Shown here one piece after another: positions 43,724-60,705 of a DNA stretch of 64,000 nt (its first letter is position 1; the number at the start of each line of letters is the position of its first letter). The position numbers were made by a program, and so were the translations under genes. Below the pieces are notes generated by a model. It was not told the origin of the DNA. It searched no databases and was given only the letters and a program-made list of their open reading frames with translations. Location of the stretch: the NCBI RefSeq assembly GCF_988242995.1, contig NZ_OZ547043.1; one strand, 5' to 3'.

Positions 43724-43973
43724 GAGTAGGCTTCGCTTTGTTGTGTTGTGTGGCAGCTGATTTTTGCGCGCTGCTTCTGTGAACAGTTATTAAGCGGGCT
43801 TTTCGTTTTCGTCTATCTCTTTAGCTACCGGTCAGACCATTTTTTTTCCAGCTCTGTGACCTTGTCTTGGTTAACTTAATGTTAAATTGATGTAACATAA
43901 TCACTTACGTGATGTGCGTGTTTTGCGAGTTAAGAACAGAAAAATTGGTCCTACCTGTGCACGAGGTCCGGGA

Positions 43974-44738
43974 ATGAAAGATGAACGTCGCCCTATTTGC
44001 GAAGTGGTTGCAGAGAGTATCGAACGGTTAATTATCGACGGCGTACTGAAGGTCGGTCAGCCGCTTCCCTCGGAACGTCGACTGTGTGAAAAGCTCGGCT
44101 TCTCACGCTCCGCACTGCGTGAAGGGCTGACCGTGCTGCGCGGGCGCGGGATTATTGAAACAGCGCAGGGTCGCGATTCTCGTGTCGCACGGCTTAATCG
44201 GGTGCAGGACACCAGCCCGCTAATTCATCTGTTCAGCACGCAGCCGCGAACGCTGTACGATCTGCTCGACGTTCGCGCATTGCTGGAGGGCGAATCGGCA
44301 AGGCTGGCGGCAACGCTGGGAACGCAGGCTGATTTTGTTGTGATAACCCGCTGTTATGAAAAAATGCTCGCCGCCAGTGAGAACAACAAAGAGATTTCGC
44401 TGATCGAACATGCACAGTTGGATCACGCTTTCCATCTCGCCATTTGTCAGGCTTCTCACAATCAGGTGTTGGTGTTTACGCTGCAATCATTGACCGATCT
44501 GATGTTTAATTCAGTGTTTGCCAGCGTAAATAATCTCTACCATCGACCACAGCAAAAAAAGCAGATCGATCGCCAGCATGCGCGGATCTACAACGCGGTG
44601 TTGCAGCGGCTGCCGCACGTCGCCCAGCGCGCAGCACGCGATCATGTGCGGACCGTGAAAAAGAATCTCCACGATATCGAGCTGGAAGGCCACCATTTGA
44701 TTCGCTCGGCGGTGCCGCTGGAGATGAAGCAGGGGTGA
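43974..44738 (+). CDS. glcC: GntR-family transcriptional activator of the glc operon
   Basis: Start set to MKDERRPICEV (254 aa); N-terminal winged HTH and FCD domain. Confidence 0.9.
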   Translation: MKDERRPICEVVAESIERLIIDGVLKVGQPLPSERRLCEKLGFSRSALREGLTVLRGRGIIETAQGRDSRVARLNRVQDTSPLIHLFSTQPRTLYDLLDVRALLEGESARLAATLGTQADFVVITRCYEKMLAASENNKEISLIEHAQLDHAFHLAICQASHNQVLVFTLQSLTDLMFNSVFASVNNLYHRPQQKKQIDRQHARIYNAVLQRLPHVAQRAARDHVRTVKKNLHDIELEGHHLIRSAVPLEMKQG

Positions 44739-44744
44739 CTGCCA

Positions 44745-45683
44745 TCAAATCTGCTTTTCATACAATCGGTAACGCTTGTACGGCTCTGCCCCAATGCGTT
44801 CCAGCATGTTATTCATGCCTGTATTGGTTTCGAGGATCCATGACATTTCCAGCGCATCGATCTTCCGGCGGGCAAACGGATCGCGTAAGGCTTCAATCAA
44901 TAACAGCGCAATCACCGGGCCGATGCGGCTAAACTGATACTCGTCCCGCACGCCCATCAGCGGTACTCGCGCAGTTCGCACACCGCTGACTTTTAAACGC
45001 CACAGCAATTTTGCCCAGCCGAAGGGAAAGAGCGATCCGTTCAGATCGGCAATCGCCTCGTTGATGTTTGGCAAGCCAACAATAAACGCGCAGGGTGCAG
45101 AATCAATCTCAGCGATGTAGATCATATCGTCCGGCACCAGATATTTAAGTTGATCGCCCATAGTCGCGAATTCATGTTCGGTAAACGGCACAAATCCCCA
45201 GTTGTGCTGCCAGCCAGAGTTGAAAATCTCACGCAGGATCTGCATCTCTTCGGCAAACCGCTGGCGATTGATGCAGCGAATGGTCACCTTCTTACGCACC
45301 TGATCCATCAGTTTTTTTAGCGCCGGAGAGAAAGTGAGATCGGTTCGCTGCATCCACCACGCTAGTAAATCAATGCCTTTGTGATAACCCAATTGTTCAA
45401 TATGCGCGGCATACCACGGTTTACCGTGCGGCATCATCGCACAGGGTGGTGTATCGAAACCTTCAATCAGTAATCCGCTTTCCTGATTGATATTCAGGCT
45501 GAAAGGACCGCTGATCTTACTTGCACCTTGTGACTTCAACCACGCTTCCGCTGCGCCAAACAACGCGGCAAAAACCTGCGGATCATCAATGGCGTCAATC
45601 ATGCCGAAATGACCGGTATCTTCACCGTAACGCTCGCGGTGCAAGGTATCTATTTGCACGGTAATACGCCCAACTATCTGCCC
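44745..45683 (-). pseudogene. yghO: yghO, C-terminal 312 codons, separated from its N-terminus by IS4
   Basis: Frame stays open from 45683 down to the stop at 44745 and is in phase with the N-terminal fragment at 47123-47326 once IS4 plus one copy of the target duplication are removed. Confidence 0.75.
45671..45683. repeat. Left copy of the 13-bp IS4 target-site duplication CAACTATCTGCCC
   Basis: Identical 13-mer at 47110-47122 immediately flanking the other IS4 end. Confidence 0.85.
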
Positions 45684-47109
45684 TAATGCCGATCAGTTAA
45701 GGATCAGTTGACCGATCCAGTGGCTGTGTAAGAATCCGGAAACGCTCACTTGTTTCCGGATTTTTTTATGCACATTGGACAGGCTCTTGATCTGGTATCC
45801 CGTTACGATTCTCTGCGTAACCCACTGACTTCTCTGGGGGATTACCTCGACCCCGAACTCATCTCTCGTTGCCTTGCCGAATCAGGTACTGTAACGCTAC
45901 GCAAGCGCCGTCTTCCCCTCGAAATGATGGTCTGGTGTATTGTTGGCATGGCGCTTGAGCGTAAAGAACCTCTTCACCAGATTGTGAATCGCCTGGACAT
46001 CATGCTGCCGGGCAATCGCCCCTTCGTTGCCCCCAGTGCCGTTATTCAGGCCCGCCAGCGCCTGGGAAGTGAGGCTGTCCGCCGCGTGTTCACGAAAACA
46101 GCGCAGCTCTGGCATAACGCCACGCCGCATCCGCACTGGTGCGGCCTGACCCTGCTGGCCATCGATGGTGTGTTCTGGCGCACACCGGATACACCAGAGA
46201 ACGATGCAGCCTTCCCCCGCCAGACACATGCCGGGAACCCGGCGCTCTACCCGCAGGTCAAAATGGTCTGCCAGATGGAACTGACCAGCCATCTGCTGAC
46301 GGCTGCAGCCTTCGGCACGATGAAGAACAGCGAAAATGAGCTTGCTGAGCAACTTATAGAACAAACCGGCGATAACACTCTGACGTTAATGGATAAAGGT
46401 TATTACTCACTGGGACTGTTAAATGCCTGGAGCCTGGCGGGAGAACACCGCCACTGGATGATACCTCTCAGAAAGGGAGCGCAATATGAAGAGATCAGAA
46501 AACTGGGTAAAGGCGATCATCTGGTGAAGCTGAAAACCAGCCCGCAGGCACGAAAAAAGTGGCCGGGACTGGGAAATGAAGTGACTGCCCGCCTGCTGAC
46601 CGTGACGCGCAAAGGAAAAGTCTGCCATCTGCTGACGTCGATGACGGACGCCATGCGCTTCCCCGGAGGAGAAATGGGGGATCTGTACAGTCATCGCTGG
46701 GAAATCGAACTGGGATACAGGGAGATAAAACAGACGATGCAACGGAGCAGGCTGACGCTGAGAAGTAAAAAGCCGGAGCTTGTGGAGCAAGAGCTGTGGG
46801 GTGTCTTACTGGCTTATAATCTGGTGAGATATCAGATGATTAAAATGGCGGAACATCTGAAAGGTTACTGGCCGAATCAACTGAGTTTCTCAGAATCATG
46901 CGGAATGGTGATGAGAATGCTGATGACATTGCAGGGCGCTTCACCGGGACGTATACCGGAGCTGATGCGCGATCTTGCAAGTATGGGACAACTTGTGAAA
47001 TTACCGACAAGAAGGGAAAGGGCCTTCCCGAGAGTGGTAAAGGAGAGGCCCTGGAAATACCCCACAGCCCCGAAAAAGAGCCAGTCAGTTGCTTAACTGA
47101 CTGGCATTA
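45684..47109 (+). mobile_element. IS4, complete 1426-bp copy
   Basis: Terminal inverted repeats TAATGCCGATCAGTTAAG (45684-45701) and CTTAACTGACTGGCATTA (47092-47109); length exactly 1426 bp; flanked by 13-bp direct repeats. Confidence 0.85.
45768..47096 (+). CDS. insG: IS4 transposase (DDE family)
   Basis: 442 aa from [16 protein letters not shown]..., recalled as the IS4 transposase; the track ORF adds six residues upstream. Confidence 0.85.
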
Positions 47110-47326
47110 CAACTATCTGCCCCGCTTTTTTTGCCACCCACGCCTGCCAGATGATATGGTCCGTCCCCGGATTTTTCGCAGACAAATGCTCGTTGCGTTC
47201 AATGAATAAAGGGGGTATCCAGTTTGGATCGTCGGGATAAAGTGATGACGGAAAAGCGATAAATGCCTTAAGGTCATTTTTATTAATTACTTTTTCAATT
47301 TTAATCATCAGCAGATCGCATTCCAT
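47110..47326 (-). pseudogene. yghO: yghO N-terminal fragment (68 codons) plus right copy of the IS4 target duplication
   Basis: MECDLLMIKIEKVINKNDLKAFIAF... reads in frame into the duplicated 13-mer (47110-47122), then terminates inside IS4 in the track ORF. Confidence 0.75.
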
Positions 47327-47697: not shown

Positions 47698-49422
47698 ATG
47701 TCTAATAAAATCTTTACGCATTCCCTACCTATGCGCTATGCCGATTTTCCAACGCTGGTTGATGCTTTGGACTACGCCGCTCTGAGTAGCGCCGGAATGA
47801 ATTTTTATGACAGACGTTGCCAACTTGAAGATCAACTGGAATATCAGACGTTAAAAGCGCGTGCCGAAGCTGGTGCGAAGCGGTTGTTATCGCTGAACCT
47901 GAAAAAAGGCGATCGCGTGGCGCTGATTGCCGAAACCAGTAGCGGGTTCGTAGAGGCTTTTTTTTCCTGCCAGTATGCCGGCTTAGTCGCCGTCCCGTTG
48001 GCGATTCCAATGGGCGTCGGTCAGCGGGATTCCTGGAGCGCCAAACTGCAGGGTTTACTGGCAAGTTGCCAGCCCGCAGCCATTATCACTGGTGATGAGT
48101 GGTTACCGCTGGTCAATGCCGCGACGCATAACAACAACCCCGAATTACATGTTTTAAGCCACGCCTGGTTTAAGGCATTACCGGAAGCCGATGTTGCGCT
48201 CCAGCGTCCAGTTCCGAACGATATCGCCTACCTCCAGTACACCTCCGGCAGCACCCGTTTTCCCCGTGGCGTCATTATCACCCATCGCGAAGTGATGGCT
48301 AATCTACGTGCTATAAGCCACGATGGCATTAAATTACGCCCTGGCGACCGCTGCGTCTCCTGGCTGCCTTTCTACCATGATATGGGACTGGTCGGCTTTC
48401 TCCTGACCCCCGTCGCCACGCAGCTCTCAGTAGATTATTTGCGCACTCAGGATTTTGCCATGCGTCCTCTGCAATGGCTTAAATTGATCAGTAAAAATCG
48501 CGGCACCGTTTCCGTTGCGCCGCCGTTTGGCTATGAATTGTGCCAGCGCCGCGTGAATGAAAAAGATCTCGCTGAACTGGATCTTTCCTGCTGGCGCGTT
48601 GCTGGTATTGGTGCTGAGCCGATCTCCGCAGAACAACTCCATCAATTCGCTGAATGTTTCCGTCAGGTTAACTTTGACGATAAAACTTTCATGCCGTGCT
48701 ACGGACTGGCAGAAAATGCGCTGGCTGTCAGCTTCTCTGATGAAGCCTCCGGGGTTGTGGTTAACGAAGTGGATCGCGACATCCTTGAATATCAGGGCAA
48801 AGCCGTCGCGCCGGGTGCTGAAACACGCGCCGTATCGACTTTCGTCAACTGCGGTAAAGCGTTGCCGGAACATGGCATTGAAATCCGCAATGAAGCAGGT
48901 ATGCCGGTCGCGGAACGTGTGGTAGGCCATATTTGCATCTCCGGCCCTAGCCTGATGAGCGGTTACTTTGGCGACCAGATTTCACAAGACGAGATTGCCG
49001 CGACGGGCTGGTTAGACACCGGCGACCTCGGTTATCTGCTGGACGGTTATCTGTATGTCACCGGACGCATTAAAGATCTGATTATTATTCGTGGCCGTAA
49101 TATCTGGCCGCAGGATATTGAATATATTGCGGAACAGGAACCGGAAATTCATTCTGGCGATGCGATTGCTTTTGTTACCGCCCAGGAAAAAATCATTCTG
49201 CAGATCCAGTGTAGGATCAGCGACGAAGAACGTCGTGGGCAGCTTATCCACGCACTGGTAGCACGGATCCAAAGCGAATTTGGCGTAACAGCGGCTATCG
49301 ATCTGTTGCCGCCCCACAGTATTCCCCGAACGTCCTCCGGCAAGCCTGCCCGTGCGGAAGCGAAAAAACGTTATCAGAAGGCTTATGCTGCAAGCCTTCA
49401 TGTGCAGGAATCCCTGGCATGA
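47698..49422 (+). CDS. Fatty acyl-AMP ligase / acyl-ACP synthetase-like adenylating enzyme
   Basis: AMP-binding core motif YTSGSTRFPRGV; about 575 aa. Start uncertain (track uses TTG at 47671; first ATG is 47698). Confidence 0.7.
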   Translation: MSNKIFTHSLPMRYADFPTLVDALDYAALSSAGMNFYDRRCQLEDQLEYQTLKARAEAGAKRLLSLNLKKGDRVALIAETSSGFVEAFFSCQYAGLVAVPLAIPMGVGQRDSWSAKLQGLLASCQPAAIITGDEWLPLVNAATHNNNPELHVLSHAWFKALPEADVALQRPVPNDIAYLQYTSGSTRFPRGVIITHREVMANLRAISHDGIKLRPGDRCVSWLPFYHDMGLVGFLLTPVATQLSVDYLRTQDFAMRPLQWLKLISKNRGTVSVAPPFGYELCQRRVNEKDLAELDLSCWRVAGIGAEPISAEQLHQFAECFRQVNFDDKTFMPCYGLAENALAVSFSDEASGVVVNEVDRDILEYQGKAVAPGAETRAVSTFVNCGKALPEHGIEIRNEAGMPVAERVVGHICISGPSLMSGYFGDQISQDEIAATGWLDTGDLGYLLDGYLYVTGRIKDLIIIRGRNIWPQDIEYIAEQEPEIHSGDAIAFVTAQEKIILQIQCRISDEERRGQLIHALVARIQSEFGVTAAIDLLPPHSIPRTSSGKPARAEAKKRYQKAYAASLHVQESLA

Positions 49423-50333
49423 ATCAAACTGTCGCGGTGACGGGCGCTACCGGGTTTATCGGTAAATATATTATCGATAACCTGCTCGCCCGCGGCTTTC
49501 ACGTTCGCGCATTGACGCGTACTGCCCGCGCTCACGTCAATGACAATCTCATCTGGGTGCGCGGTTCTCTGGAAGATACTCATTCACTTAGCGAACTGGT
49601 TGCCGGAGCCAGCGCGGTGGTCCATTGCGCCGGACAAGTGCGCGGGCACAAAGAAGAGATTTTTACCCGCTGTAACGTTGACGGCAGCCTGCGACTGATG
49701 CAAGCGGCAAAAGAGAGCGGCTTTTGCCAACGTTTTCTGTTTATCTCTTCGCTGGCGGCGCGCCATCCCGAACTCTCCTGGTACGCAAATTCCAAACACG
49801 TCGCCGAACAACGGCTGACTGCAATGGCTGATGAAATTACGCTGGGCGTTTTTCGTCCGACAGCCGTGTATGGTCCCGGCGATAAAGAGTTAAAACCGCT
49901 GTTTGACTGGATGCTGCGCGGCCTGCTGCCACGACTTGGTGCGCCAGATACACAACTCTCTTTCCTGCACGTCACCGATTTTGCGCAAGCAGTGGGTCAG
50001 TGGTTAAACGCCGAAACTGTACAGACGCAAACCTATGAATTATGCGATGGCGTCGCTGGCGGCTATGACTGGCAACGCGTACGACAGCTTGCCGCCGAAG
50101 CCCGTTGTGGTTCTGTGCGGATGGTTGGCATTCCTCTGCCGCTACTCACCTGCCTTGCGGATATCAGTACTGCGTTGAGTCGCCTGGCAGGTAAAGAACC
50201 TATGCTGACCCGCTCGAAAATTCGTGAATTAACCCACGCCGACTGGTCGGCAAATAATAACCGTATTTCTGAAGATATTAATTGGTTTCCCGGGATTAGC
50301 CTGGAACACGCATTACGCAACGGGCTATTTTGA
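49419..50333 (+). CDS. NAD(P)-dependent reductase of the extended SDR (epimerase/dehydratase) family
   Basis: N-terminal Rossmann motif TGATGFIG and catalytic YANSK (YxxxK); ATGA overlap with the upstream ligase. Confidence 0.7.
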   Translation: MNQTVAVTGATGFIGKYIIDNLLARGFHVRALTRTARAHVNDNLIWVRGSLEDTHSLSELVAGASAVVHCAGQVRGHKEEIFTRCNVDGSLRLMQAAKESGFCQRFLFISSLAARHPELSWYANSKHVAEQRLTAMADEITLGVFRPTAVYGPGDKELKPLFDWMLRGLLPRLGAPDTQLSFLHVTDFAQAVGQWLNAETVQTQTYELCDGVAGGYDWQRVRQLAAEARCGSVRMVGIPLPLLTCLADISTALSRLAGKEPMLTRSKIRELTHADWSANNNRISEDINWFPGISLEHALRNGLF

Positions 50334-50364: not shown

Positions 50365-50613
50365 ATGGTAAATCGTGAAATAGTAATGGATTACATCCTT
50401 TCCTGTTTACAGGATTTGGTCGAAAACGGTGTGGAAATTAAGCCCGACAGCGATCTCGTCAACGATCTTGGCCTGGAGTCGATCAAAGTGATGGATCTCT
50501 TAATGATGCTGGAAGACAGATTCGATATTTCCATTCCTATTAATATTCTGCTGGATGTCAAAACCCCTGCGCAATTAATGGAAACACTACTTCCATGGCT
50601 GGAGAATAAATAA
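50365..50613 (+). CDS. Acyl carrier protein
   Basis: 82 aa four-helix-sized protein with phosphopantetheine-site-like DLGLESIKVMDL. Confidence 0.65.
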   Translation: MVNREIVMDYILSCLQDLVENGVEIKPDSDLVNDLGLESIKVMDLLMMLEDRFDISIPINILLDVKTPAQLMETLLPWLENK

Positions 50614-51785
50614 TGGGGCTATACGATAAATATGCGCGCCTTGCTGGCGAGCGACTGCAATTTAGTGACAACGGGTTAACACCGTTTGGCACCTGTATTG
50701 ATGAAGTGTATTCCGCCACCGAAGGTCGGATCGGCAATAAAAAAGTGATTCTGGCCGGGACCAATAATTATCTCGGTTTAACCTTTAATCATGATGCCAT
50801 CGCCGAAGGTCAGGCAGCATTAGCGGCCCAAGGCACCGGCACCACCGGTTCTCGTATGGCAAACGGCAGTTATGCGCCGCATCTGGCGTTAGAGAAAGAG
50901 ATCGCCGAGTTTTTTAATCGCCCTACCGCTATCGTTTTTTCAACCGGTTATACCGCTAATTTAGGCGTCATCAGCGCACTTGCCGACCATAACGCCGTGG
51001 TGTTACTGGATGCCGACAGCCACGCCAGTATTTATGACGCCTGTTCTCTCGGTGGCGCGGAAATTATTCGTTTCCGCCATAACGATGCTAAAGATCTGGA
51101 ACGGCGCATGGTTCGCCTCGGTGAACGGGCAAAAGAGGCGATTATCATCGTTGAAGGCATCTACAGTATGCTCGGTGACGTTGCGCCGCTGGCGGAAATT
51201 GTTGATATCAAACGTCGTCTCGGTGGTTATTTGATTGTCGATGAAGCGCATTCGTTTGGCGTGTTAGGCGCAACGGGGCGCGGACTGGCTGAAGCCGTTG
51301 GCGTTGAAGATGATGTGGATATTATCGTTGGTACTTTCAGTAAAAGTCTGGCCTCGATTGGCGGTTTTGCTGTCGGTTCGGAAGCGATGGAAGTGCTGCG
51401 CTACGGCAGCCGCCCGTATATTTTTACCGCCTCTCCTTCTCCGTCCTGCATTGCGACCGTGCGCTCGTCGTTAAGAACCATTGCTACACAACCAGAGTTG
51501 CGGCAAAAGCTGATGGATAATGCCAACCATCTGTATGACGGTCTGCAAAAACTGGGTTATGAGTTAAGTTCACATATTAGCCCGGTAGTGCCAGTAATAA
51601 TCGGTTCGAAAGAGGAAGGTTTACGCATCTGGCGCGAGCTTATTTCGCTGGGCGTTTATGTGAATCTTATCCTGCCACCTGCCGCGCCTGCAGGCATCAC
51701 GCTGCTGCGCTGTAGCGTAAACGCTGCCCACAGTCGTGAGCAAATCGATGCCATCATTCAGGCATTTGCTACTCTGAAGCAGTAA
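50613..51785 (+). CDS. PLP-dependent alpha-oxoamine synthase (serine palmitoyltransferase / 8-amino-7-oxononanoate synthase family)
   Basis: 390 aa with the family blocks FSTGYTANLG, HASIYDA, DEAHSFGVLG and the PLP-lysine motif GTFSKSLASIGGF; TAATG overlap with the ACP gene. Confidence 0.75.
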   Translation: MGLYDKYARLAGERLQFSDNGLTPFGTCIDEVYSATEGRIGNKKVILAGTNNYLGLTFNHDAIAEGQAALAAQGTGTTGSRMANGSYAPHLALEKEIAEFFNRPTAIVFSTGYTANLGVISALADHNAVVLLDADSHASIYDACSLGGAEIIRFRHNDAKDLERRMVRLGERAKEAIIIVEGIYSMLGDVAPLAEIVDIKRRLGGYLIVDEAHSFGVLGATGRGLAEAVGVEDDVDIIVGTFSKSLASIGGFAVGSEAMEVLRYGSRPYIFTASPSPSCIATVRSSLRTIATQPELRQKLMDNANHLYDGLQKLGYELSSHISPVVPVIIGSKEEGLRIWRELISLGVYVNLILPPAAPAGITLLRCSVNAAHSREQIDAIIQAFATLKQ

Positions 51786-51819: not shown

Positions 51820-52899
51820 TTAATGTTGACTGTCATACCAATACACCAGGCTCAACGCCACCAGCACAAACACTATCGGTAAACCGAGCGCGGTAACAGG
51901 TGCGCTCAACGCAAATAACAATCCCAGATTGACCATGATTTGATAGCTGATCCAGGTGAGTAAGCCAACGATGACGCCTACAGCGAGACGGCTACCCATC
52001 CCTGGCGAGCGCGGGGCGCTAAAGGTAAACGGCACAGCCAGCAAAATCATCGCCAGAGTTAAGATGGGTTGCCCCAGTTTTTCCCACAGTGCAAGGCGGT
52101 AATCGCTGCTGGGTTGCCCGGTTTCCTGCAAATAATGGATGTAATGATTAAGCTGACGGACAGAAAAAGTATTCCCCGGCATCGATAACTCTTCAAGATC
52201 CATACTGGTGAAGGCCGATTGCCAGGCAAGATTATCTGATGTTTCCAGCGTTTCTTTGCCATTCAACCATTTTTTATGATTCACACCATGCAGGATCCAC
52301 GTTTTGTCGTCTTCAATGGAGGCACTGCGTGCAAAAATGTAGGATTCGAGCGAGAGATCGTCGCGATAATGAAATATCTCCACGCCCACAGGCTGGCCCT
52401 GCTCGTTCAGCGATTTCACCGTCACAAATTCATTACCGCGCCTGGCCCAAAGCATATTGCCGGTAATGTCATCGTCCTCCCCCAACGCGGTGGCAGTCGA
52501 TTTGATTTGCAGCGCCTGTTGCTGCAATGGCGACGCCACCCACTCATCTATCGCGCCTAACGAAACAGTCCACAATATCCCGGCAACCAGCGCCACCAGT
52601 GCAATACGGAAGATAGAAAACCCAGTGCTGCGAATGGCGGTAAGCTCACTGTTTTTCGATAACTGCCCCAGGCCAACAATCCCTCCCAATAATGCGATAA
52701 ACGGCGAAAGTTCGACCAGTGTACGCGGTAAGGTCATCAGCACCACCAGCACCGCCTGAGTCCAGCGATAACCACCCGGGCTGACATCATCCAGTTCGTT
52801 AATCAGGTTGAAGGTGGTAAAAAGCGGCAGCAATAGCCCTGCGGCGGCGGCAAAACCGAGAAAGAGATGACGGATTAAATAGCGACTGAAAACATTCAT
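51820..52899 (-). CDS. LptG/LptF-family (YjgP/YjgQ) permease, second of a pair
   Basis: Start set to MNVFSRYLIRHLF (ATGA overlap with the upstream paralogue); six-helix permease-like hydrophobicity with a large periplasmic loop. Confidence 0.65.
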   Translation of the reverse strand: MNVFSRYLIRHLFLGFAAAAGLLLPLFTTFNLINELDDVSPGGYRWTQAVLVVLMTLPRTLVELSPFIALLGGIVGLGQLSKNSELTAIRSTGFSIFRIALVALVAGILWTVSLGAIDEWVASPLQQQALQIKSTATALGEDDDITGNMLWARRGNEFVTVKSLNEQGQPVGVEIFHYRDDLSLESYIFARSASIEDDKTWILHGVNHKKWLNGKETLETSDNLAWQSAFTSMDLEELSMPGNTFSVRQLNHYIHYLQETGQPSSDYRLALWEKLGQPILTLAMILLAVPFTFSAPRSPGMGSRLAVGVIVGLLTWISYQIMVNLGLLFALSAPVTALGLPIVFVLVALSLVYWYDSQH

Positions 52900-53966
52900 C
52901 GGGAAAATTTCTGCAGCAATGAGAAGTCGCGTGCGACCAGCATCAGCAGGCCCATTAGCATGAGTCCGGGTACTAACCACAAACCAGGAATGAGGGGAAT
53001 CGCGCCGTTAGCCACCAGCGTACGGCAGACGTCGCCGCCATAAAAAATGGCAATAAACAGCAACGTCAGTGGCAATAATGTTGAAAATCGCCCTTGCCGC
53101 GGTTTTACCCGACTTAATGAAATGGCCAGCAGCGCCATCAACAATGCTGTCAGGCCACGGCTTTGTCGCCATTGCAGTTCGGCATGATCGGCTGGAAAGA
53201 CGGAGCGCGCCAGCTCCGTGACCGATTTTGCTTTGCGTTTGACGTTAGGGCTTTGATCCAGCGGATTCAGATGTAATTGCAGATTACGGTAGATCTGTTC
53301 GTTGTCGTCACGCCCCTGATGATCGAGAAGATAGGCGGTCCCGTTATGCAACATAACGGTCGGTTTCTCAGGTGATGGGTCAACCACATCAACCGAACGG
53401 GCGCGGAAAATGCGGGTTCGATTGGCAGTAGAAGTATAAATCAGCGCGTCAGTCAGGCGATTATTATCCTGATCAACCGTCTGCGAAAGGATCATTCGTC
53501 CGTTATCGTTAGTGTTAAATTTCTTTGCCCGCAACTGGCGAACATCCAGCTCCGACTGTGACTGTTGCTCCAGTTGATAAATCTGCGCATAAGCCCACGG
53601 ACGACCATACATCGACAGAAGGGTGACAAAAATACTTAGCGGTATCGCCAGATAAAGAACGGCTTTGTACAAGCGTCCCGGACTGCCCCCCGCCGCAGAA
53701 ATAGCGGTAATTTCCGAGTCGGTATACATCTGCCCTAGCGTCACGCCAACTGACACATACAGTCCAACAGGTAACAACATCTCCAGTGCAATCAGCACCT
53801 TGTAGAAAACAATATCCAGCACAACATCAAGAGCTAATGTCCCATTTGCCGCTTCGGTCAGATAACGCTGTGCGGAGTAGCTGGCGAAAATAAAGATCAG
53901 AAAACCGACGATAATCAGCACCAGACGGCGCGTACCACGCATGATGTAGTGTTCAACCAGCTTCAT
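52896..53966 (-). CDS. LptF/LptG-family (YjgP/YjgQ) permease, first of a pair
   Basis: 356 aa beginning MKLVEHYIMRGTRRLVLIIVGFLIF, same family architecture as the downstream paralogue. Confidence 0.65.
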   Translation of the reverse strand: MKLVEHYIMRGTRRLVLIIVGFLIFIFASYSAQRYLTEAANGTLALDVVLDIVFYKVLIALEMLLPVGLYVSVGVTLGQMYTDSEITAISAAGGSPGRLYKAVLYLAIPLSIFVTLLSMYGRPWAYAQIYQLEQQSQSELDVRQLRAKKFNTNDNGRMILSQTVDQDNNRLTDALIYTSTANRTRIFRARSVDVVDPSPEKPTVMLHNGTAYLLDHQGRDDNEQIYRNLQLHLNPLDQSPNVKRKAKSVTELARSVFPADHAELQWRQSRGLTALLMALLAISLSRVKPRQGRFSTLLPLTLLFIAIFYGGDVCRTLVANGAIPLIPGLWLVPGLMLMGLLMLVARDFSLLQKFSR

Positions 53967-53996: not shown

Positions 53997-54560
53997 TTAT
54001 TCATTGATCAGTTTCTGCGCCAGCGCAATGACATGTTCTACCTCTTCCGGCGTCAGGCTGCCGTCCTTTGCCCACTGAATTTGCCCGGCTTTATTCAGCA
54101 CCAGAATGGTTGAACTCTGCTCCGGCAACCGCCAGGCAACGCGTCCCTGTCCATTGCCGTCAATAACGAATTGCGCCCACGGATAGCGGCGTTTATTTTT
54201 TTCGATTTTGCCAACGACAAAATAGCCAGTACCAAAAATGGCATCATCGGTGTTCACAATGGTGGTGGGCTGAAAACGATCCTGCGGAAAGTTTGCCGCT
54301 TCAACCGCTTTAATTAACAGTGAGTTCTTTTTCTTCGCCGACTTACGCCCGGCGATATACTGAATAATGCGAACTTTTCCCGCCAGCTGTGTGCTGTTCC
54401 ACTTTTGGTAGTGAATTTCGTCGTCGCTATTCAGAAGCAGCTCGCCGCCTTCCTGGATATAAACAGGGGTAACCGTTTTGCCAGTGACGAAATTGTGTGC
54501 CTGCACACCCGGGGCTAAGAGCATGATAATCAGCGCAATAATCAAACGAGATGACATCAT
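53997..54560 (-). CDS. Secreted/periplasmic protein, YtfJ-like
   Basis: 187 aa with cleavable signal peptide (MMSSRLIIALIIMLLAPGVQA); family assignment is from recall only. Confidence 0.45.
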   Translation of the reverse strand: MMSSRLIIALIIMLLAPGVQAHNFVTGKTVTPVYIQEGGELLLNSDDEIHYQKWNSTQLAGKVRIIQYIAGRKSAKKKNSLLIKAVEAANFPQDRFQPTTIVNTDDAIFGTGYFVVGKIEKNKRRYPWAQFVIDGNGQGRVAWRLPEQSSTILVLNKAGQIQWAKDGSLTPEEVEHVIALAQKLINE

Positions 54561-54568
54561 TGCTCCGG

Positions 54569-55393
54569 TTATAGCGGAAAACGCGAAATCAGCAGCTCTA
54601 AGCGCTGGCGAATATCGCTATCCAGCGCCACCGGTGCATCATACGACTGGCGGTTTTCCATATCATCCGCCACCATGTCGTCGTGTTTATCCCCCATCAG
54701 GCCATTAATGGCGGCGAGGAAGCGGGAAATCTGTAACGCCTCTTTATTTTCAGGATCAAGCGATCTTAGGGTGTCGTAATAAGAAACCTGCTGGCTGATG
54801 ATTTTTCGCACATCATGAAATTCCCTGCCAGTTAGTCGCGGTTTGGCAATTATCTCTTTCAGGGTATGCATTTGCTTTTGCCGATAGGCAATAAAACCGC
54901 TTACGCTTTCTAACTGGCTATGGCGTAATGAATAGTTCACCAACGACCAGACCGGAGAGCTTAAATAAACCCGTAACAGGTTGCCGTAATACGACACAAT
55001 ATTTTTCTTACCGTTACGAAAGCCGTCCTGAAAACGCCCCAAAAAAACGGTCGTTTTGCCGAATAAAAATCCGGCCTGATGCTTTTTTAAATACAGCCGT
55101 TGCGCAAAACGCAGGTGCTTGTAGCGCGCTCGCATGTATTTAAATTGTTTGCGCTCATCAGCAGTCAGCTCATCGCCTTTGGCCTGTTTGCATATTAAAC
55201 GCAGTAACTCCTGGCGATTGACGCCATTGAGCCAGAATTGCAGGCATAACGCGTAATTATCATGGATGATTTCGGTGGTACAACTTAGTGCGATAGTCGG
55301 CGGCAAACTGACCTGTGCATCAACGACATCATCTTCTTCAATCGCAACAAATAGACGCTCGCTAGCCTCAAGCGGGAAATATTTTCTCATCAT
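54569..55393 (-). CDS. Conserved hypothetical protein, no recognised domain
   Basis: 274 aa basic soluble protein; 1-bp overlap with the upstream flippase gene. Confidence 0.45.
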   Translation of the reverse strand: MMRKYFPLEASERLFVAIEEDDVVDAQVSLPPTIALSCTTEIIHDNYALCLQFWLNGVNRQELLRLICKQAKGDELTADERKQFKYMRARYKHLRFAQRLYLKKHQAGFLFGKTTVFLGRFQDGFRNGKKNIVSYYGNLLRVYLSSPVWSLVNYSLRHSQLESVSGFIAYRQKQMHTLKEIIAKPRLTGREFHDVRKIISQQVSYYDTLRSLDPENKEALQISRFLAAINGLMGDKHDDMVADDMENRQSYDAPVALDSDIRQRLELLISRFPL

Positions 55394-56742
55394 CAGGATT
55401 TCTCTCCGGCTGCGTTATAAAGCAAGGAATGGCGCTGAAAAAATGCCTTTAAGGTTGGAATTAGCGAGAGCACCACATCCAGACATTGCCCAGCGAAGTA
55501 AGCAAATGCAGCCCCCAGCACGCCAAACAGATGACAGAACATGAACAGCAATACGATGTAGCCGATTGAGGCGATGGTTTGCGCCACGAGAAAAGCACGC
55601 TGTTTTCCCGCCATCAATAGCAATGACTCCTGTGGGAAGCCCAGCATCGAAATCACAATTGCGCCCAGCATCACCTGAATCAGGTCATACGCTTCGAGAT
55701 ACTTAACGCCAAACACCAGCGAAATGAGCGGCTTGCCGACGATCAACACCGCGAGCGCCACCAGAATACCGATTCCGCCCGCCAGTAAACCGGACTTCAC
55801 GCCTAACAACCACGGTCTGGTGGTGCGCGGATCTAAACGCATCACCTCTGGGTAAAAACTTTTACCCAGTAAACCCGCTGGCGTTCCGGCGGCGTCGAAG
55901 AATGTCATGGCGATTTTAAATAACCCGGCGGCAGCGGGTCCTAACACGATCCCCACCAACACTGTGCTGCACGAGTTACGTGCCGACCAGATGGAGTGGG
56001 CAATGTTGGTTGACCAGACAAAACTCCACGCGCCTTTAATGTGTCGGGCAGACTCAAACAGATTCAATTTGAAGGCGTTATGGATATTTCTGCGGCGTAA
56101 TTCGCGCGCGGCAAACCACCAGTACATGGTGCCGCCAACCAGATTCGACACGTACCAGGCAATAACAAAACCCGCAAAACCAAAGTCAAAATACCAGGCT
56201 ACGACGCTCCCCGCTGCGCGCAGAAAAGGTTTCGTCGCTTGCTGTACAGCAATTAGATCGAAGCGATCTACCGCACGCAGAATGCCGGTCGGCGTGGAGG
56301 AAGCCATTGAAGGAATGAGCGTGCAATACAGCGCGGCCAGCCAAAAGCTTTGGTCATCCAGACCTAATGAATGGGAAAGAAAAGGGAGTAAGGCAATGCC
56401 GCCGACAATCGCCACCGCGCCGCTGACGATATCCAGCGAGAAGGAAAATGAGACGACATTGCGGAATTGCTGCGGATTATTGTTGGTTAATGCTGGTGTT
56501 CCGTACTGCACCACCAACTGCCATGTCTGAAACTTAATAAAATCGCTGATCGACTTGGCGTACGATTGCACAATCACCAGTACGCCAAACATGGCGGGCG
56601 TCATCCCTTTACCGGCACACGAGAGCGCCAACAAACCCAGCAAGGCGCTCACGACATTACTGGAGCCTAACCAGGCGCTATTGCGAATAATGGTGCGAAA
56701 CGCGCCATCTGCAAACCAATGTTTGATGTTAAAACCCGCCAA
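55393..56742 (-). CDS. yghQ: Wzx-like (MOP superfamily) flippase
   Basis: 449 aa polytopic protein with N-terminal IIRNSAWLGSSNVVSALLGLLAL typical of polysaccharide-biosynthesis flippases; adjacent to yghR. Confidence 0.6.
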   Translation of the reverse strand: MAGFNIKHWFADGAFRTIIRNSAWLGSSNVVSALLGLLALSCAGKGMTPAMFGVLVIVQSYAKSISDFIKFQTWQLVVQYGTPALTNNNPQQFRNVVSFSFSLDIVSGAVAIVGGIALLPFLSHSLGLDDQSFWLAALYCTLIPSMASSTPTGILRAVDRFDLIAVQQATKPFLRAAGSVVAWYFDFGFAGFVIAWYVSNLVGGTMYWWFAARELRRRNIHNAFKLNLFESARHIKGAWSFVWSTNIAHSIWSARNSCSTVLVGIVLGPAAAGLFKIAMTFFDAAGTPAGLLGKSFYPEVMRLDPRTTRPWLLGVKSGLLAGGIGILVALAVLIVGKPLISLVFGVKYLEAYDLIQVMLGAIVISMLGFPQESLLLMAGKQRAFLVAQTIASIGYIVLLFMFCHLFGVLGAAFAYFAGQCLDVVLSLIPTLKAFFQRHSLLYNAAGEKS

Positions 56743-56787: not shown

Positions 56788-57546
56788 TTAAGTTAAACTT
56801 CGGCGGTCAGAAACGATGGCAACCAGAGAAACCGCCTTCTGTGCCTGTTCCAGCACCTCGCTGTAAGGCGCTCTGGAATCAATCTCAAGAATTTTTGTGC
56901 CGTTATAGCCAATCGTCGACATGACGCCGATTTTGTCCTGCAGCTCGGCATAGTCATGGTCAGGCTTGCGGGAGATGGCAGTATCAATATCAATCCCCAA
57001 GCGAATGATTAATTCAGGACGGTATTGCGCCATTTGTTGGTATAAACGCCGTTCGCGCTGCGCCAGAAACATGCTGATTTTCCCGGTCGCACGTTCGACG
57101 CCGATCCCCGGTCCGTCATAATAAAAGCCCGAAATTTCAGCCTGCGGGAAGCGATCGCTGACCACCAGAACGCCACTTTGCGCCAGTCGCTGAACCTTGC
57201 GTAGATTCGCCATTCTTCGCAGCGAGAAGCAGTACATAATCACCGCCGCCCATAGCGCTGGAGATTTGGTTTTCATGCTTTGGGTTTTCGAGGATTTGGC
57301 CGCCAGTCGCCGTTCGAGCCAGACGCCAACCAACGGCAATCGTTTGATTTTGTCGCCGTCTTCGCCGGAGAGCAGCCCCAAATAGCGGCGCTCGGTTTGC
57401 CAGTGTTGTTGCAGCGATTTCACCAGGTCGGTGGTCAGCGTGGATTTACCGGTGCCATCACACCCGACCACCGCAATCAGCCCCGGAATGTAGTTGGGCT
57501 GCGGCACGGTTGTACTATTAACAGTTTGTGTTTGTAGTGCATCCAT
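56788..57546 (-). CDS. yghR: P-loop NTPase, thymidylate-kinase-like putative kinase
   Basis: 252 aa with N-terminal Walker A VVGCDGTGKSTL; paralogue of the next two genes. Confidence 0.7.
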   Translation of the reverse strand: MDALQTQTVNSTTVPQPNYIPGLIAVVGCDGTGKSTLTTDLVKSLQQHWQTERRYLGLLSGEDGDKIKRLPLVGVWLERRLAAKSSKTQSMKTKSPALWAAVIMYCFSLRRMANLRKVQRLAQSGVLVVSDRFPQAEISGFYYDGPGIGVERATGKISMFLAQRERRLYQQMAQYRPELIIRLGIDIDTAISRKPDHDYAELQDKIGVMSTIGYNGTKILEIDSRAPYSEVLEQAQKAVSLVAIVSDRRSLT

Positions 57547-57577
57547 TCGTTAAATCATCCCCTATCCATTTTGGTGA

Positions 57578-58291
57578 TCAGGAAAGCGCGGCGTGAATTG
57601 CGCGTAGTGACGCTTGCATAATTTCATCGGCTGGTTGCCGACCATCCAGTTCAAGGATCCTGGCGCCATTGAATGTCAGTTGCGGCGTAACGGCGATTTT
57701 TTCCTGTAACGCCGCCAGTTGATGGTCAGGTTTACGCGAAAACGCGGTTTGTTCATCAATGCCAAGACGAATCAACAATACGGGCAAATAAGACGCCATC
57801 CATTGGTACAGCTTCAGCTCGCGCTGCCTTAACATTTTTATCCAGCCGTTACCGCCCGTGGTTTTTGCCAATTGCGGGCCATCAAAGCGAAAACCCGGCA
57901 CTTCAACCTGCGGGTAGCGGTCGGTGATGAGCAGATAGCCTTGCTGGCTTTTACACAACATTTTGCGAAACTTGTACGCCCGCCAGCAGGAAAGCAGATA
58001 GATAACCAGCGCAGTAATATTGCCAGGCGGTGTTAAGGGCTTTTCGTGCACATGTGCCGCTTTACTTCGCAAATAACGCCCAAAAGGTGCGCCAATAACA
58101 GGGAGCTGTGAAATCCATTCGCCAATTCGCCCGGACGATTGCCCGAGATAAATGTGTTCTGTTGGCATTGTTGCTGCCAGTTCATTTACCAGGCTTGCCG
58201 TGAGGGTCGATTTACCTGAACCATCACATCCTACAATGGCAATAACACGCACTGGCGTGGAATTAATTATTGACATATTACGTTGATTCAC
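57578..58291 (-). CDS. yghS: P-loop NTPase, thymidylate-kinase-like putative kinase
   Basis: 237 aa, Walker A IVGCDGSGKSTL; collinear with yghR. Confidence 0.7.
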   Translation of the reverse strand: MNQRNMSIINSTPVRVIAIVGCDGSGKSTLTASLVNELAATMPTEHIYLGQSSGRIGEWISQLPVIGAPFGRYLRSKAAHVHEKPLTPPGNITALVIYLLSCWRAYKFRKMLCKSQQGYLLITDRYPQVEVPGFRFDGPQLAKTTGGNGWIKMLRQRELKLYQWMASYLPVLLIRLGIDEQTAFSRKPDHQLAALQEKIAVTPQLTFNGARILELDGRQPADEIMQASLRAIHAALS

Positions 58292-58464
58292 GAAAAACCC
58301 GGCAGCAAATAATGTATTGAATATTACGTGGTCCGTGCTCAGAATATCCGTTCAACCTTATTGTGACAATGGTTAATTGTGACATTGACCTGAATTACGC
58401 TTTCATAAAAACATATTAACCAAATAAATATTTTTAATGGATATTTAAATTAAAGGATATATTC

Positions 58465-59157
58465 ATGCAGTCAATAACACCTCCATTAATTGCCGTTATT
58501 GGTAGCGATGGTTCAGGCAAGTCAACGGTGTGTGAACATCTCATTACCGTTGTCGAAAAATATGGTGCTGCCGAAAGAGTTCATTTAGGAAAACAGGCCG
58601 GAAATGTCGGTCGTGCAGTGACAAAATTACCGTTGATGGGAAAATCCTTACATAAAACAATTGAACGAAATCAGGTGAAAACAGCAAAAAAATTGCCAGG
58701 ACCAGTTCCGGCGCTGGTAATTACAGCGTTTGTCGCCCGTCGCTTACTGCGCTTTCGTCATATGCTTGCCTGTCGTCGTCGCGGGTTAATTGTTCTAACC
58801 GACCGTTATCCTCAGGACCAAATTCCTGGCGCTTACGATGGTACAGTGTTCCCGCCTAACGTTGAAGGCGGCCGGTTTGTCTCATGGCTGGCAAGCCAGG
58901 AACGTAAAGCGTTTCACTGGATGGCGAGCCATAAACCTGATCTGGTCATCAAACTCAATGTCGATCTGGACGTGGCCTGCGCGCGTAAGCCTGACCACAA
59001 AAGAGAATCGCTGGAAAGGAAGATAGCCATAACGCCACAGTTAACCTTTGGAGGCGCGCAACTGGTTGATATCGATGCCAATCAACCGCTGGAACAAGTG
59101 CTGGTTGATGCGGAAAAAGCGATTACGGATTTTATGACCGCGCGTGGTTATCACTAG
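58465..59157 (+). CDS. yghT: P-loop NTPase, thymidylate-kinase-like putative kinase
   Basis: 230 aa, Walker [13 protein letters not shown]; divergent from yghS. Confidence 0.7.
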
Positions 59158-59169
59158 TCAAAAATGGAA

Positions 59170-59194
59170 ATGCCCGATCGCCAGGACCGGGCAT
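59170..59194. terminator. Bidirectional rho-independent terminator between convergent yghT and pitB
   Basis: Stem ATGCCCG / CGGGCAT flanked by AAAAT on one side and TTTTC on the other. Confidence 0.45.
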
Positions 59195-59205
59195 TTTCAG
59201 GAAGG

Positions 59206-60705
59206 TTAAATCAACTGCAATGCTATCCAGTACAACCCACCAGAAAGAAAAATCGCCGCCGGTAAAGTAAACACCCACGCCATCAGGATGCTGGTTACCG
59301 TTTTACGCTGTAACCCACCGCCGTCCACCACCATCGTCCCTGCTACCGCAGACGAGAGGACGTGTGTTGTGGAGACGGGCATCCCAATATAACTGGCAAG
59401 GCCGATAGACACTGCCGCCGTCATTTGTGCCGCCATGCCTTGCGCATACGTCATGCCGCGCTTACCAATCTTCTCACCGATGGTCATCGCTACACGACGC
59501 CAGCCAATCATGGTGCCAATGCCGAGCGCCAGTGCTACTGCCATGATGATCCACACCGGAGCGTACTCAATGGTGCTTAACATATCGCTGCGCAGTTTTT
59601 TCAGCAGGTTCTGGTCTTCTTTACTGACGCCTGGCAGTTTCGCCAGCTTCGCGGAGGTATCAGAGATGCACAGCATAATGCGGCGCAGCTGGCTGCGCTG
59701 ACTCACGCTTAACGGCTCGTAACTTTCCATATTGCCTGGCAGCATCGTTTTAACGCGCGCAATCGCATCAAAGGTATTTGCCGGATGACAGTGAAACTCC
59801 GTTACTTGCGTACCATCAGTCGATGCCGCAGGCAATGGAGGTTCCATCGCAATCAACTTCTGCGGCAGTTCAGGATGCTGTTGCAGGTAGTGTTCGAAGT
59901 TGGTGACGGCATCGCGGGTACGGGTAATTTCATAGCCGGACGCATTCATATTGACGACGAAACCAGCAGGGGCAATCCCCACCAGTACCAGCATCACCAG
60001 GCCGATCCCTTTCTGCCCGTCGTTAGCACCGTGCGAAAACGCCACGCCCGCAGCGGAAACAATCAGCGCAATACGCGTCCAGAATGGTGGCTTCCGTTTG
60101 CCTTTTTTCTTTTTGCGATCTTCCGGAATGCGGTGAATACGGTCACGCTTTTTCGTCCCGCTCCAGTAGCGGCGCAGCAGGAATATCAGGCCTCCCGCAA
60201 TGACCAGGCCGACGATAGGGGAAACAATCAGCGAGGAGAAAATTTTGGTCACTTCACGCAGGTTTAACGCATCCATCACCGATGAGCCGGTTAACAGCGC
60301 GTTGGTTAAACCGATGCCGATAATCGCACCAATCAAGGTATGCGAACTGGAGGCCGGTAAACCAAAGAACCACGTTCCCAGGTTCCAGATAATCGCCGCC
60401 AGCAGCATGGAAAAGACCATCGCCAGGCCGTGAGTTGACCCCATATTCAGCAACAAATCGGTTGGCAACATATGGACAATGGCATAGGCAACGCTAAGTC
60501 CGCCTAGCAATACGCCAAAAAAGTTAAAAAATGCCGCCATCACCACAGCAAGTTGTGGTTGCATGGCACGAGTATAAATAACGGTTGCCACCGCATTCGC
60601 CGTATCATGAAAACCATTGATTGCTTCGTAGAACAACACAAATGCCAGAGCAAGTAATAACAAAAGCCCCGTGAATATATCAAGGCCAACAAATAAATTT
60701 AGCAT
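59206..60705 (-). CDS. pitB: Low-affinity inorganic phosphate transporter (PiT family)
   Basis: 499 aa polytopic transporter with the PiT signature region [15 protein letters not shown] near the N-terminus. Confidence 0.85.

Follow-up and report, generated by a model that had tools for sequence, protein, structure and literature searches.

YghR, YghS and YghT: three paralogous thymidylate-kinase-fold proteins proposed to phosphorylate ceramide in a proteobacterial sphingolipid island

Lipid A is phosphorylated and decorated by LpxK, a P-loop kinase acting on a membrane lipid, together with LpxT, LpxE/F, LmtA and LpxO; the LpxO, LpxE/F and LmtA classes that decorate it are hydroxylase, PAP2 phosphatase and methyltransferase, respectively. 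An anionic head group is built on sphingolipids in Caulobacter, where the CPG2 head-group module (CpgA-D) stands on a five-gene ceramide core and LptF2/G2 (PMC10331486, PMC11324152, PMC12275187). In Sulfolobus, the heteromeric polyphosphate kinase PPK3 (Saci_2019/Saci_2020) is made of exapted deoxythymidine monophosphate (dTMP) kinase paralogues encoded beside a CHAD protein (PMC12995831), and CHAD domains bind polyphosphate (PMC6537752). Here we analyse yghR, yghS and yghT, which lie at positions 56,788 to 59,157 of a stretch of 64,000 nucleotides (the window; contig NZ_OZ547043.1 of RefSeq assembly GCF_988242995.1) that is Escherichia coli DNA, with 98.8-99.5% identity to RefSeq genomes. Our reading, to which we give a probability of about 0.55, is that their products are three ancient, non-redundant thymidylate-kinase-fold phosphotransferases, not dTMP kinases, which serve as the head-group module of a proteobacterial sphingolipid island and phosphorylate ceramide. 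The observations given here directly support the paralogy of the three proteins, their fold, the presence of intact motifs in each of the three clades, the division into three orthogroups, the conserved synteny with sphingolipid genes and, for a partner protein, a CHAD-like fold.

The three genes are arranged as follows.

56788-57546, minus strand: yghR, R-clade paralogue of the thymidylate-kinase-fold P-loop kinases, an open reading frame of 252 amino acids (aa)
57578-58291, minus strand: yghS, S-clade paralogue of 237 aa, leading gene of the minus-strand operon
58465-59157, plus strand: yghT, T-clade paralogue, divergently transcribed, an open reading frame of 230 aa

An initial annotation of this DNA had described three reading frames of 230 to 252 aa, two collinear and one divergent across a 173 bp spacer (58292-58464), and we found them at exactly those positions and in that arrangement; the Walker A pattern that it had assigned to all three proteins is fitted by YghR (VVGCDGTGKSTL), YghS (IVGCDGSGKSTL) and the corresponding YghT string. 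It had left to pairwise alignment whether the likeness went beyond this motif. By BLASTP the proteins match at full length, with identities of 42% for YghR/YghS (E 2e-62), 36% for YghS/YghT (E 2e-53) and 34% for YghR/YghT (E 3e-48), and since they align over their whole length, and not at the P-loop alone, they are true paralogues. All three genes are under purifying selection, because the ratio of nonsynonymous to synonymous change per site (pN/pS) between the window and strain K-12 is 0.06, 0.20 and 0.02 for the three genes. The trio was found in 4604 of 5426 complete E. coli genomes. The preference of the initial annotation for a nucleoside-kinase-type fold over an ABC ATPase was right, by way of the thymidylate-kinase fold and its motifs, but the sphingolipid-island context had been missed; its interpretation as a whole stands only in part.

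The Ygh kinases have the three-dimensional fold of thymidylate kinases. YghR carries SDRFPQ and RKPDH in addition to VVGCDGTGKSTL, RKPDH is also among the motifs of YghT, and a P-loop of the form GCDG(T/S)GKST or GSDGSGKST together with (S/T)DR(Y/F)PQ occurs in all three proteins and all three clades. Indeed, GxDGxGKST, DR(Y/F)PQ, YDG and RKPDH are retained across the R, S and T clades, and D189 and H190 are invariant; the clades diverge in the segments flanking the presumed acceptor site. At the position of the nucleoside-monophosphate-binding region of thymidylate kinases, the family has a specific insert of about 40 residues (residues ~48-90 of YghS), modelled with a predicted local distance difference test (pLDDT) score of 63-71.

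Related loci were collected from one genome per species, giving 80 loci from Enterobacterales, Xanthomonadales, Sphingomonadales, Betaproteobacteria, a Myxococcales metagenome-assembled genome and others. In a neighbour-joining tree, the 222 kinase sequences fell into three perfectly separated clades (R, 79; S, 75; T, 68), with a mean identity of about 0.6 inside clades and 0.35-0.42 between them. The R clade was represented in 79/79 loci and the T clade in 68, all three types were present in 53 of the 57 loci of at least 18 kb, and the layout with T divergent from S-R (T-/S+R+) recurred in 56 loci. The triplication is old and each copy has been kept, an argument that the three proteins have distinct roles or form an obligate hetero-oligomer. 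Natural di-domain fusions of S with R and of T with R also occur. More distant relatives of the kinase domain, from metagenomes, are fused to Wzx-type flippases (P0215, P0261) or to a glycosyltransferase family 4 (GT4) enzyme (among P0215, P0261 and P0249), and one of the Wzx-type flippase-kinase fusions also carries an NTP_transf_5 domain.

In RefSeq genomes sharing this region (locus L001), the island that holds the trio lies between glcC and pitB, with yghO, aasR, cerR, acpR and spt followed, on the other strand, by lptG2, lptF2, ytfJ, a gene for a 274 aa protein, yghQ, yghR and yghS, and then the divergent yghT. The minus-strand genes from yghS to lptG2 overlap or are separated by gaps of at most 45 bp. 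The other genes of the island lie in the window as follows.

55393-56742, minus strand: yghQ, MOP-family (Wzx-like) flippase of 449 aa (Pfam Polysacc_synt, E 5e-11; Polysacc_synt_3, E 1e-7)
54569-55393, minus strand: CHAD-like all-helical protein of 274 aa, annotated as hypothetical
53997-54560, minus strand: ytfJ, YtfJ-family protein of 187 aa with a putative N-terminal signal peptide (PF09695, E 1e-59; TIGR01626, 212 bits)
52896-53966, minus strand: lptF2, LptF paralogue (TIGR04407, 318 bits against a cut-off of 230)
51820-52899, minus strand: lptG2, LptG paralogue, named lptG by RefSeq in L001 (TIGR04408, 307 bits against a cut-off of 240); start set by homology with the RefSeq annotation, the mechanical reading frame extending to 52980
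50613-51785, plus strand: spt, serine palmitoyltransferase, annotated as such in L001 (Pfam Aminotran_1_2, E 1e-51)
50365-50613, plus strand: acpR, specialised acyl carrier protein, from its annotation
49419-50333, plus strand: cerR/epi, NAD-dependent reductase of ceramide synthesis, equivalent to ECD_02852 (Pfam Epimerase, E 3e-23; PMC9386255)
47671-49422, plus strand: aasR, acyl-acyl carrier protein synthetase (fatty acyl-AMP ligase), equivalent to ECD_02851 (Pfam AMP-binding, E 1.5e-57); coordinates of the reading frame as listed, the RefSeq homologue beginning about 30 nt further in
44745-45683, minus strand: 3' part of yghO, homologue of bacterial ceramide synthase/N-acyltransferase, with the 5' part at 47110-47326

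Several of these genes have been characterized elsewhere. The products of the acpR, aasR and spt orthologues of E. coli B have been shown to be biochemically active in the synthesis of 3-oxo-sphinganine, with ECD_02854 (the spt orthologue) making this compound and ECD_02853 (the acpR orthologue) demonstrated to be an acyl carrier protein; in the same work, from the Geiger laboratory, yghO and the reductase are matched to the aca/ceramide N-acyltransferase gene and to the keto-reductase, respectively (PMC9386255). The LptF2/G2 paralogues of Caulobacter sphingolipid loci have been implicated in sphingolipid export, working with the housekeeping LptB (2026 preprint, bioRxiv 10.64898/2026.04.12.717747). 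At least 80% of the 10 kb stretch from cerR to pitB, which is most of the island, is present in 4084 of 5426 complete E. coli genomes.

When all open reading frames of the 80 loci were clustered and the gene families within 10 kb of the kinases were counted, the most frequent neighbour was yghQ (65 loci), followed by the gene for the 274 aa protein (56), spt (55), cerR (52), aasR (50), ytfJ (40), lptF2 (37), lptG2 (36) and yghO (31); spt was present in 46 of the 57 loci of at least 18 kb. The YtfJ-family gene divides the set, occurring in 39 of 42 Enterobacterales-type loci versus none of the 38 others. The 274 aa protein has a CHAD-like fold. Pfam returned no family for it at E up to 0.1, the CHAD model included, a search of PDB sequences gave no match at E up to 10, and just one member of its family bears the UniRef name 'CHAD domain-containing protein'; its link to CHAD is supported by fold alone and not by sequence. 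In Oecophyllibacter, a T+R fusion is accompanied by homologues of the 274 aa protein (E 5e-75) and of YghQ, and because these are kept without spt inside 10 kb, the minimal conserved module comprises the kinase or kinases, the 274 aa protein and the flippase.

Loci outside Enterobacterales (L042-L080, e.g. L048, L057 and L067) add further enzyme classes beside the kinases. These are an Asp/Asn-beta-hydroxylase-type (LpxO-like) enzyme in 25 loci, two PAP2 phosphatase families in 15 and 7 loci and a PEMT/ICMT-type membrane methyltransferase in 12 loci, along with DUF2147 and RND/OMF efflux genes. The partner enzymes in other taxa are of classes that act on phosphorylated lipids, and we count them in favour of our reading. 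They also recall the lipid A enzymes, as does export of the Lpt type; the differences are that homology to LpxK was not detected for the Ygh proteins and that the backbone predicted for them is ceramide, not a glucosamine disaccharide.

The comparison with Caulobacter is closer. In both cases a head-group module accompanies the same five-gene ceramide core and LptF2/G2, and an anionic outer-membrane sphingolipid would be expected from the E. coli island, as from the CPG2 route. However, CpgB is a DAGK-type enzyme with a GGDG motif (PMC10331486) whereas the Ygh kinases have the thymidylate-kinase fold, and the Caulobacter cluster lacks a thymidylate-kinase-like protein and uses nucleotidyl- and CDP-alcohol-transferases. 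By Pfam, NCBIfam and RefSeq annotation, no glycosyl-, CDP-alcohol- or nucleotidyl-transferase is encoded in the E. coli island; because no other transferase is encoded, phosphorylation is the sole head-group chemistry that the island offers.

Our current working hypothesis is that YghO, AasR, AcpR, Spt and CerR would synthesize, on the cytoplasmic side of the inner membrane, (dihydro)ceramide, to which YghR, YghS and YghT, probably as a hetero-oligomer, would each add one phosphoryl group. One kinase may act on a ceramide hydroxyl and the others on a second hydroxyl or on an existing phosphate, as thymidylate kinases do, and the resulting ceramide would carry several phosphates and be strongly anionic. 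Its polyanionic head group may then be bound or shielded by the CHAD-like protein, YghQ would flip the phosphorylated lipid, and LptF2/LptG2 would extract it toward the outer membrane, probably served by the housekeeping LptB, as their counterparts are in Caulobacter. What we infer here is that ceramide is the substrate, how many phosphates it receives and where, and in which order the steps run. On this last point there is a weak hint. Separate DAGK_cat (PF00781) genes with a GGDG[TS] motif lie beside the Ygh kinases in three of the 80 loci (L018, 8059-9120; L054, 2670-3809; L055, 5378-6421), and since L054 and L055 have R, S and the DAGK-type gene and no T-clade gene, as if the one replaced the other, the first phosphorylation, on a hydroxyl, may be the task of T.

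A number of points weigh against ceramide as the substrate. About 30% of related loci have no spt within 10 kb, and the Oecophyllibacter module stands among GT4 glycosyltransferase genes, likewise with no spt within 10 kb. The usual cargo of a MOP flippase is a polyprenyl-linked glycan. The region of the model in which the acceptor site presumably lies (residues ~48-90) is of low confidence. The literature searched yielded no phosphorylated sphingolipid from E. coli and nothing that ties yghRST or thymidylate-kinase-like kinases to sphingolipids; yghQ, R, S and T are undiscussed in the cited E. coli B and Caulobacter sphingolipid papers and in the other literature searched. The known bacterial ceramide kinase, CpgB, is of the DAGK type and unrelated to the Ygh kinases (PMC10331486); homology to it was considered for the trio and dropped on that ground, and Pfam gave no DAGK_cat match for YghR, YghS or YghT. 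Finally, a K-12 single-knockout screen gave no striking phenotype (PMC9278758), although this result says little because K-12 lacks the rest of the island.

A variant of the proposed route, which we consider unlikely, is that the kinases act in series like a miniature PPK3, with one of them phosphorylating ceramide and the others lengthening that phosphate through phosphoanhydride bonds; this would yield a ceramide di- or triphosphate, or a longer oligophosphate, held by the CHAD-like protein and delivered to the surface by YghQ and LptF2/G2. No description of ceramide di- or triphosphates was found in the literature searched. If the variant is true, such a lipid-anchored oligophosphate would represent a membrane lipid of a new class, present in many Enterobacterales as a polyanion resembling lipid A.

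By analogy, the closest mechanistic precedent for the trio is archaeal PPK3. As there, dTMP-kinase-like paralogues share a locus with a CHAD-like protein (56/80 loci), the S+R and T+R fusions suggest a heteromer, and the YghS model finds its best structural match in the cPPK3 homologue 2plr/5h70. It might be supposed that the trio is itself a PPK3-like heteromeric kinase, making or consuming inorganic oligo- or polyphosphate bound by the CHAD-like protein, with an indirect link to sphingolipids, e.g. as a phosphoryl donor or a co-exported polyanion. We would give this little weight. When a profile built from 142 family members was searched, it showed no preference for cPPK3, matching the cPPK3 homologue at E 0.054, over the P-loop only, and canonical thymidylate kinases better, at E ~1e-6. 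E. coli already has PPK1. The steady partners of the trio are a lipid flippase, Lpt paralogues and spt with the other ceramide genes, in contrast to the PPX, SixA and Pst neighbours of PPK3, and ppx or pst genes are not recurrent in the 80 loci. There are moreover three paralogues rather than two, and all three keep catalytic motifs, the DRx motif among them, whereas PPK3 has a regulatory subunit that is reported to be inactive (PMC12995831). The paper describing PPK3 mentions no member of the Ygh family.

It is also rather improbable that the kinases act on a non-sphingolipid carrier or a lipid-linked glycan, for instance a polyprenyl-phosphate-linked sugar flipped by YghQ, with spt nearby because both belong to a shared envelope island. 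The membership of YghQ in the MOP family, the fusions of distant relatives to Wzx-type flippases and a GT4 glycosyltransferase, and the surroundings of the Oecophyllibacter module all fit such a role. Yet neither a glycosyltransferase gene nor a sugar-nucleotide gene is present in the E. coli-type island, spt, cerR and aasR are co-located with the kinases in 50-55 of the 80 loci over several classes, and the Lpt paralogues of the operon are those tied to sphingolipid export in Caulobacter.

That the proteins are genuine dTMP or nucleotide kinases, either redundant tmk copies or suppliers of activated nucleotides, is very unlikely, despite a P-loop, DRY motif and fold of the thymidylate-kinase type. 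'dTMP kinase' is the PGAP/RefSeq product name of yghS and yghT, given at 25 bits against a TIGR00041 cut-off of 83. None of the proteins reached the curated thresholds, with 30.9 bits for YghR and 25.1 and 25.1 for the other two against 83.25 for TIGR00041, and 25.8 bits for YghR and 18.3 and 20.7 for the other two against 27 for PF02223. Identity to solved thymidylate kinases is just 17-23%, and the 142-member profile matched these at the E value given above and no better. A family-specific segment of low confidence moreover replaces the nucleotide-binding region. The RefSeq names are unsupported, and they are likely to be a propagated over-annotation. Thymidylate kinase is, further, a single housekeeping gene, and a canonical tmk lies elsewhere in E. 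coli, whereas the Ygh proteins are three orthologous paralogues in a lipid locus and differ by the insert and the invariant D189/H190. An identity as true dTMP kinases was dropped on the scores below curated cut-offs and the lipid-gene context.

Least probable of all is that the trio provides ATPase subunits energizing the YghQ or LptF2/G2 permeases, for although P-loops are present in the trio and an NCBIfam scan found no LptB-like ATPase in the island, the initial annotation was correct that an LSGGQ-like ABC signature is lacking (no [LFY]SGG[QEM] in YghR, YghS or YghT), there is no Q-loop, matches to PF00005 (ABC_tran) of 18.2 and 15.6 bits miss the cut-off of 25 and span the P-loop only, the trio shares its fold, DRx motif and lid-like motifs with small-molecule kinases, the Caulobacter LptF2/G2 are served by the housekeeping LptB, and MOP flippases are not ATP-driven. 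ABC ATPase identity was dropped on the missing signature and the P-loop-only ABC_tran match. An anti-phage defence role was likewise dropped, PADLOC defence models giving matches of P-loop length only, at E 2e-4 or weaker.

The island is disrupted in the strain from which the window comes by the following element.

45684-47109, plus strand: IS4-family insertion sequence of 1426 bp inside yghO, with a 13 bp target duplication

It contains a reading frame of 448 aa (45750-47096) with Nterm_IS4 and DDE_Tnp_1 domains. Window positions 43858-45683 align with L001 7301-9126 and those from 47110 onward with L001 9114 onward, the breakpoints overlapping by 13 bp; intact yghO in L001 encodes 380 aa. 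As the IS4 element splits yghO, ceramide synthesis is probably blocked, and the sphingolipid pathway probably broken, in this strain. A different lesion is found in K-12 (NC_000913.3, 3129043-3132408; L082), where an IS5 element (insH9) lies between yghO and a truncated yghQ of 355 aa, versus 449 aa in the window. Everything from aasR to the CHAD-like gene is missing there, and yghR, yghS and yghT are left as orphans. Because this IS5-associated deletion removed the rest of the island, the trio has remained uncharacterized in K-12.

Three features concern the control and the downstream end of the trio.

58292-58464, no strand: AT-rich divergent control region of 173 bp between yghS and yghT (G+C content ~0.39-0.41)
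58369-58341, minus strand: candidate yghS promoter from a consensus scan (-35 TTGTCA, -10 TATTCT)
59168-59196, no strand: hairpin with a 12 bp stem between the convergent yghT and pitB, a likely terminator

By itself, the consensus scan found no more sites in the divergent region than chance would give (one site versus 1.6 expected). In an alignment of the spacers of 13 Enterobacterales, the blocks CAGAATAT and TTGTGACAAT are conserved and coincide with the -10 and -35 hexamers of the candidate promoter, and the G+C content of the spacer across Enterobacterales is 0.22-0.42. yghS has been reported as a member of the H-NS regulon, and SlyA overexpression raises it 3.1-fold (PMC5797941). Beyond the hairpin, the low-affinity phosphate transporter gene pitB (59206-60705) adjoins yghT in Escherichia, Citrobacter, Pseudocitrobacter and Hafnia (10 loci; L003-L013, L081); this adjacency may be a coincidence or a link to phosphate supply.

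Some further occurrences of the family were recorded. An Enterobacterales-type island with ytfJ and lptF2/G2, genes that elsewhere mark loci of this type, and with a YghR of 69% identity, is present in 'Martelella alba' BGMRC 2031 (L036), which bears the name of an alphaproteobacterium and suggests mislabelling, contamination or recent transfer. A yghS/yghR read-through fragment filed under an ant genome ('Lasius niger', P0043) probably reflects bacterial contamination of the assembly. In a large distant subfamily (P0164 and similar proteins of 490-510 aa; L084-L086), encoded beside a DUF3373 gene, the kinase domain is preceded by some 260 N-terminal aa that have no Pfam match. These relatives were dropped as a functional lead, their contigs being short or uninformative (DUF3373, phosphoesterase, Ser/Thr kinases).

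yghR, yghS and yghT have been y-genes of unknown function since the K-12 genome was sequenced, and the sphingolipid module gives them a testable role, for which K-12 is a poor place of study as the rest of its island is deleted. The analysis also flags a systematic mis-annotation of these proteins as dTMP kinases. It suggests that most E. coli, and many Enterobacterales associated with plants, insects or the gut, have an anionic sphingolipid head group not described before, and the chemistry proposed for it differs from that of the Caulobacter CPG2 route, the sole bacterial route to have been characterized. In Caulobacter, anionic sphingolipids have effects on the sensitivity to polymyxin, on the stability of the membrane and on virulence (PMC11324152), and because they affect these traits, the product of the island could likewise matter for envelope biology and for interaction with the host.

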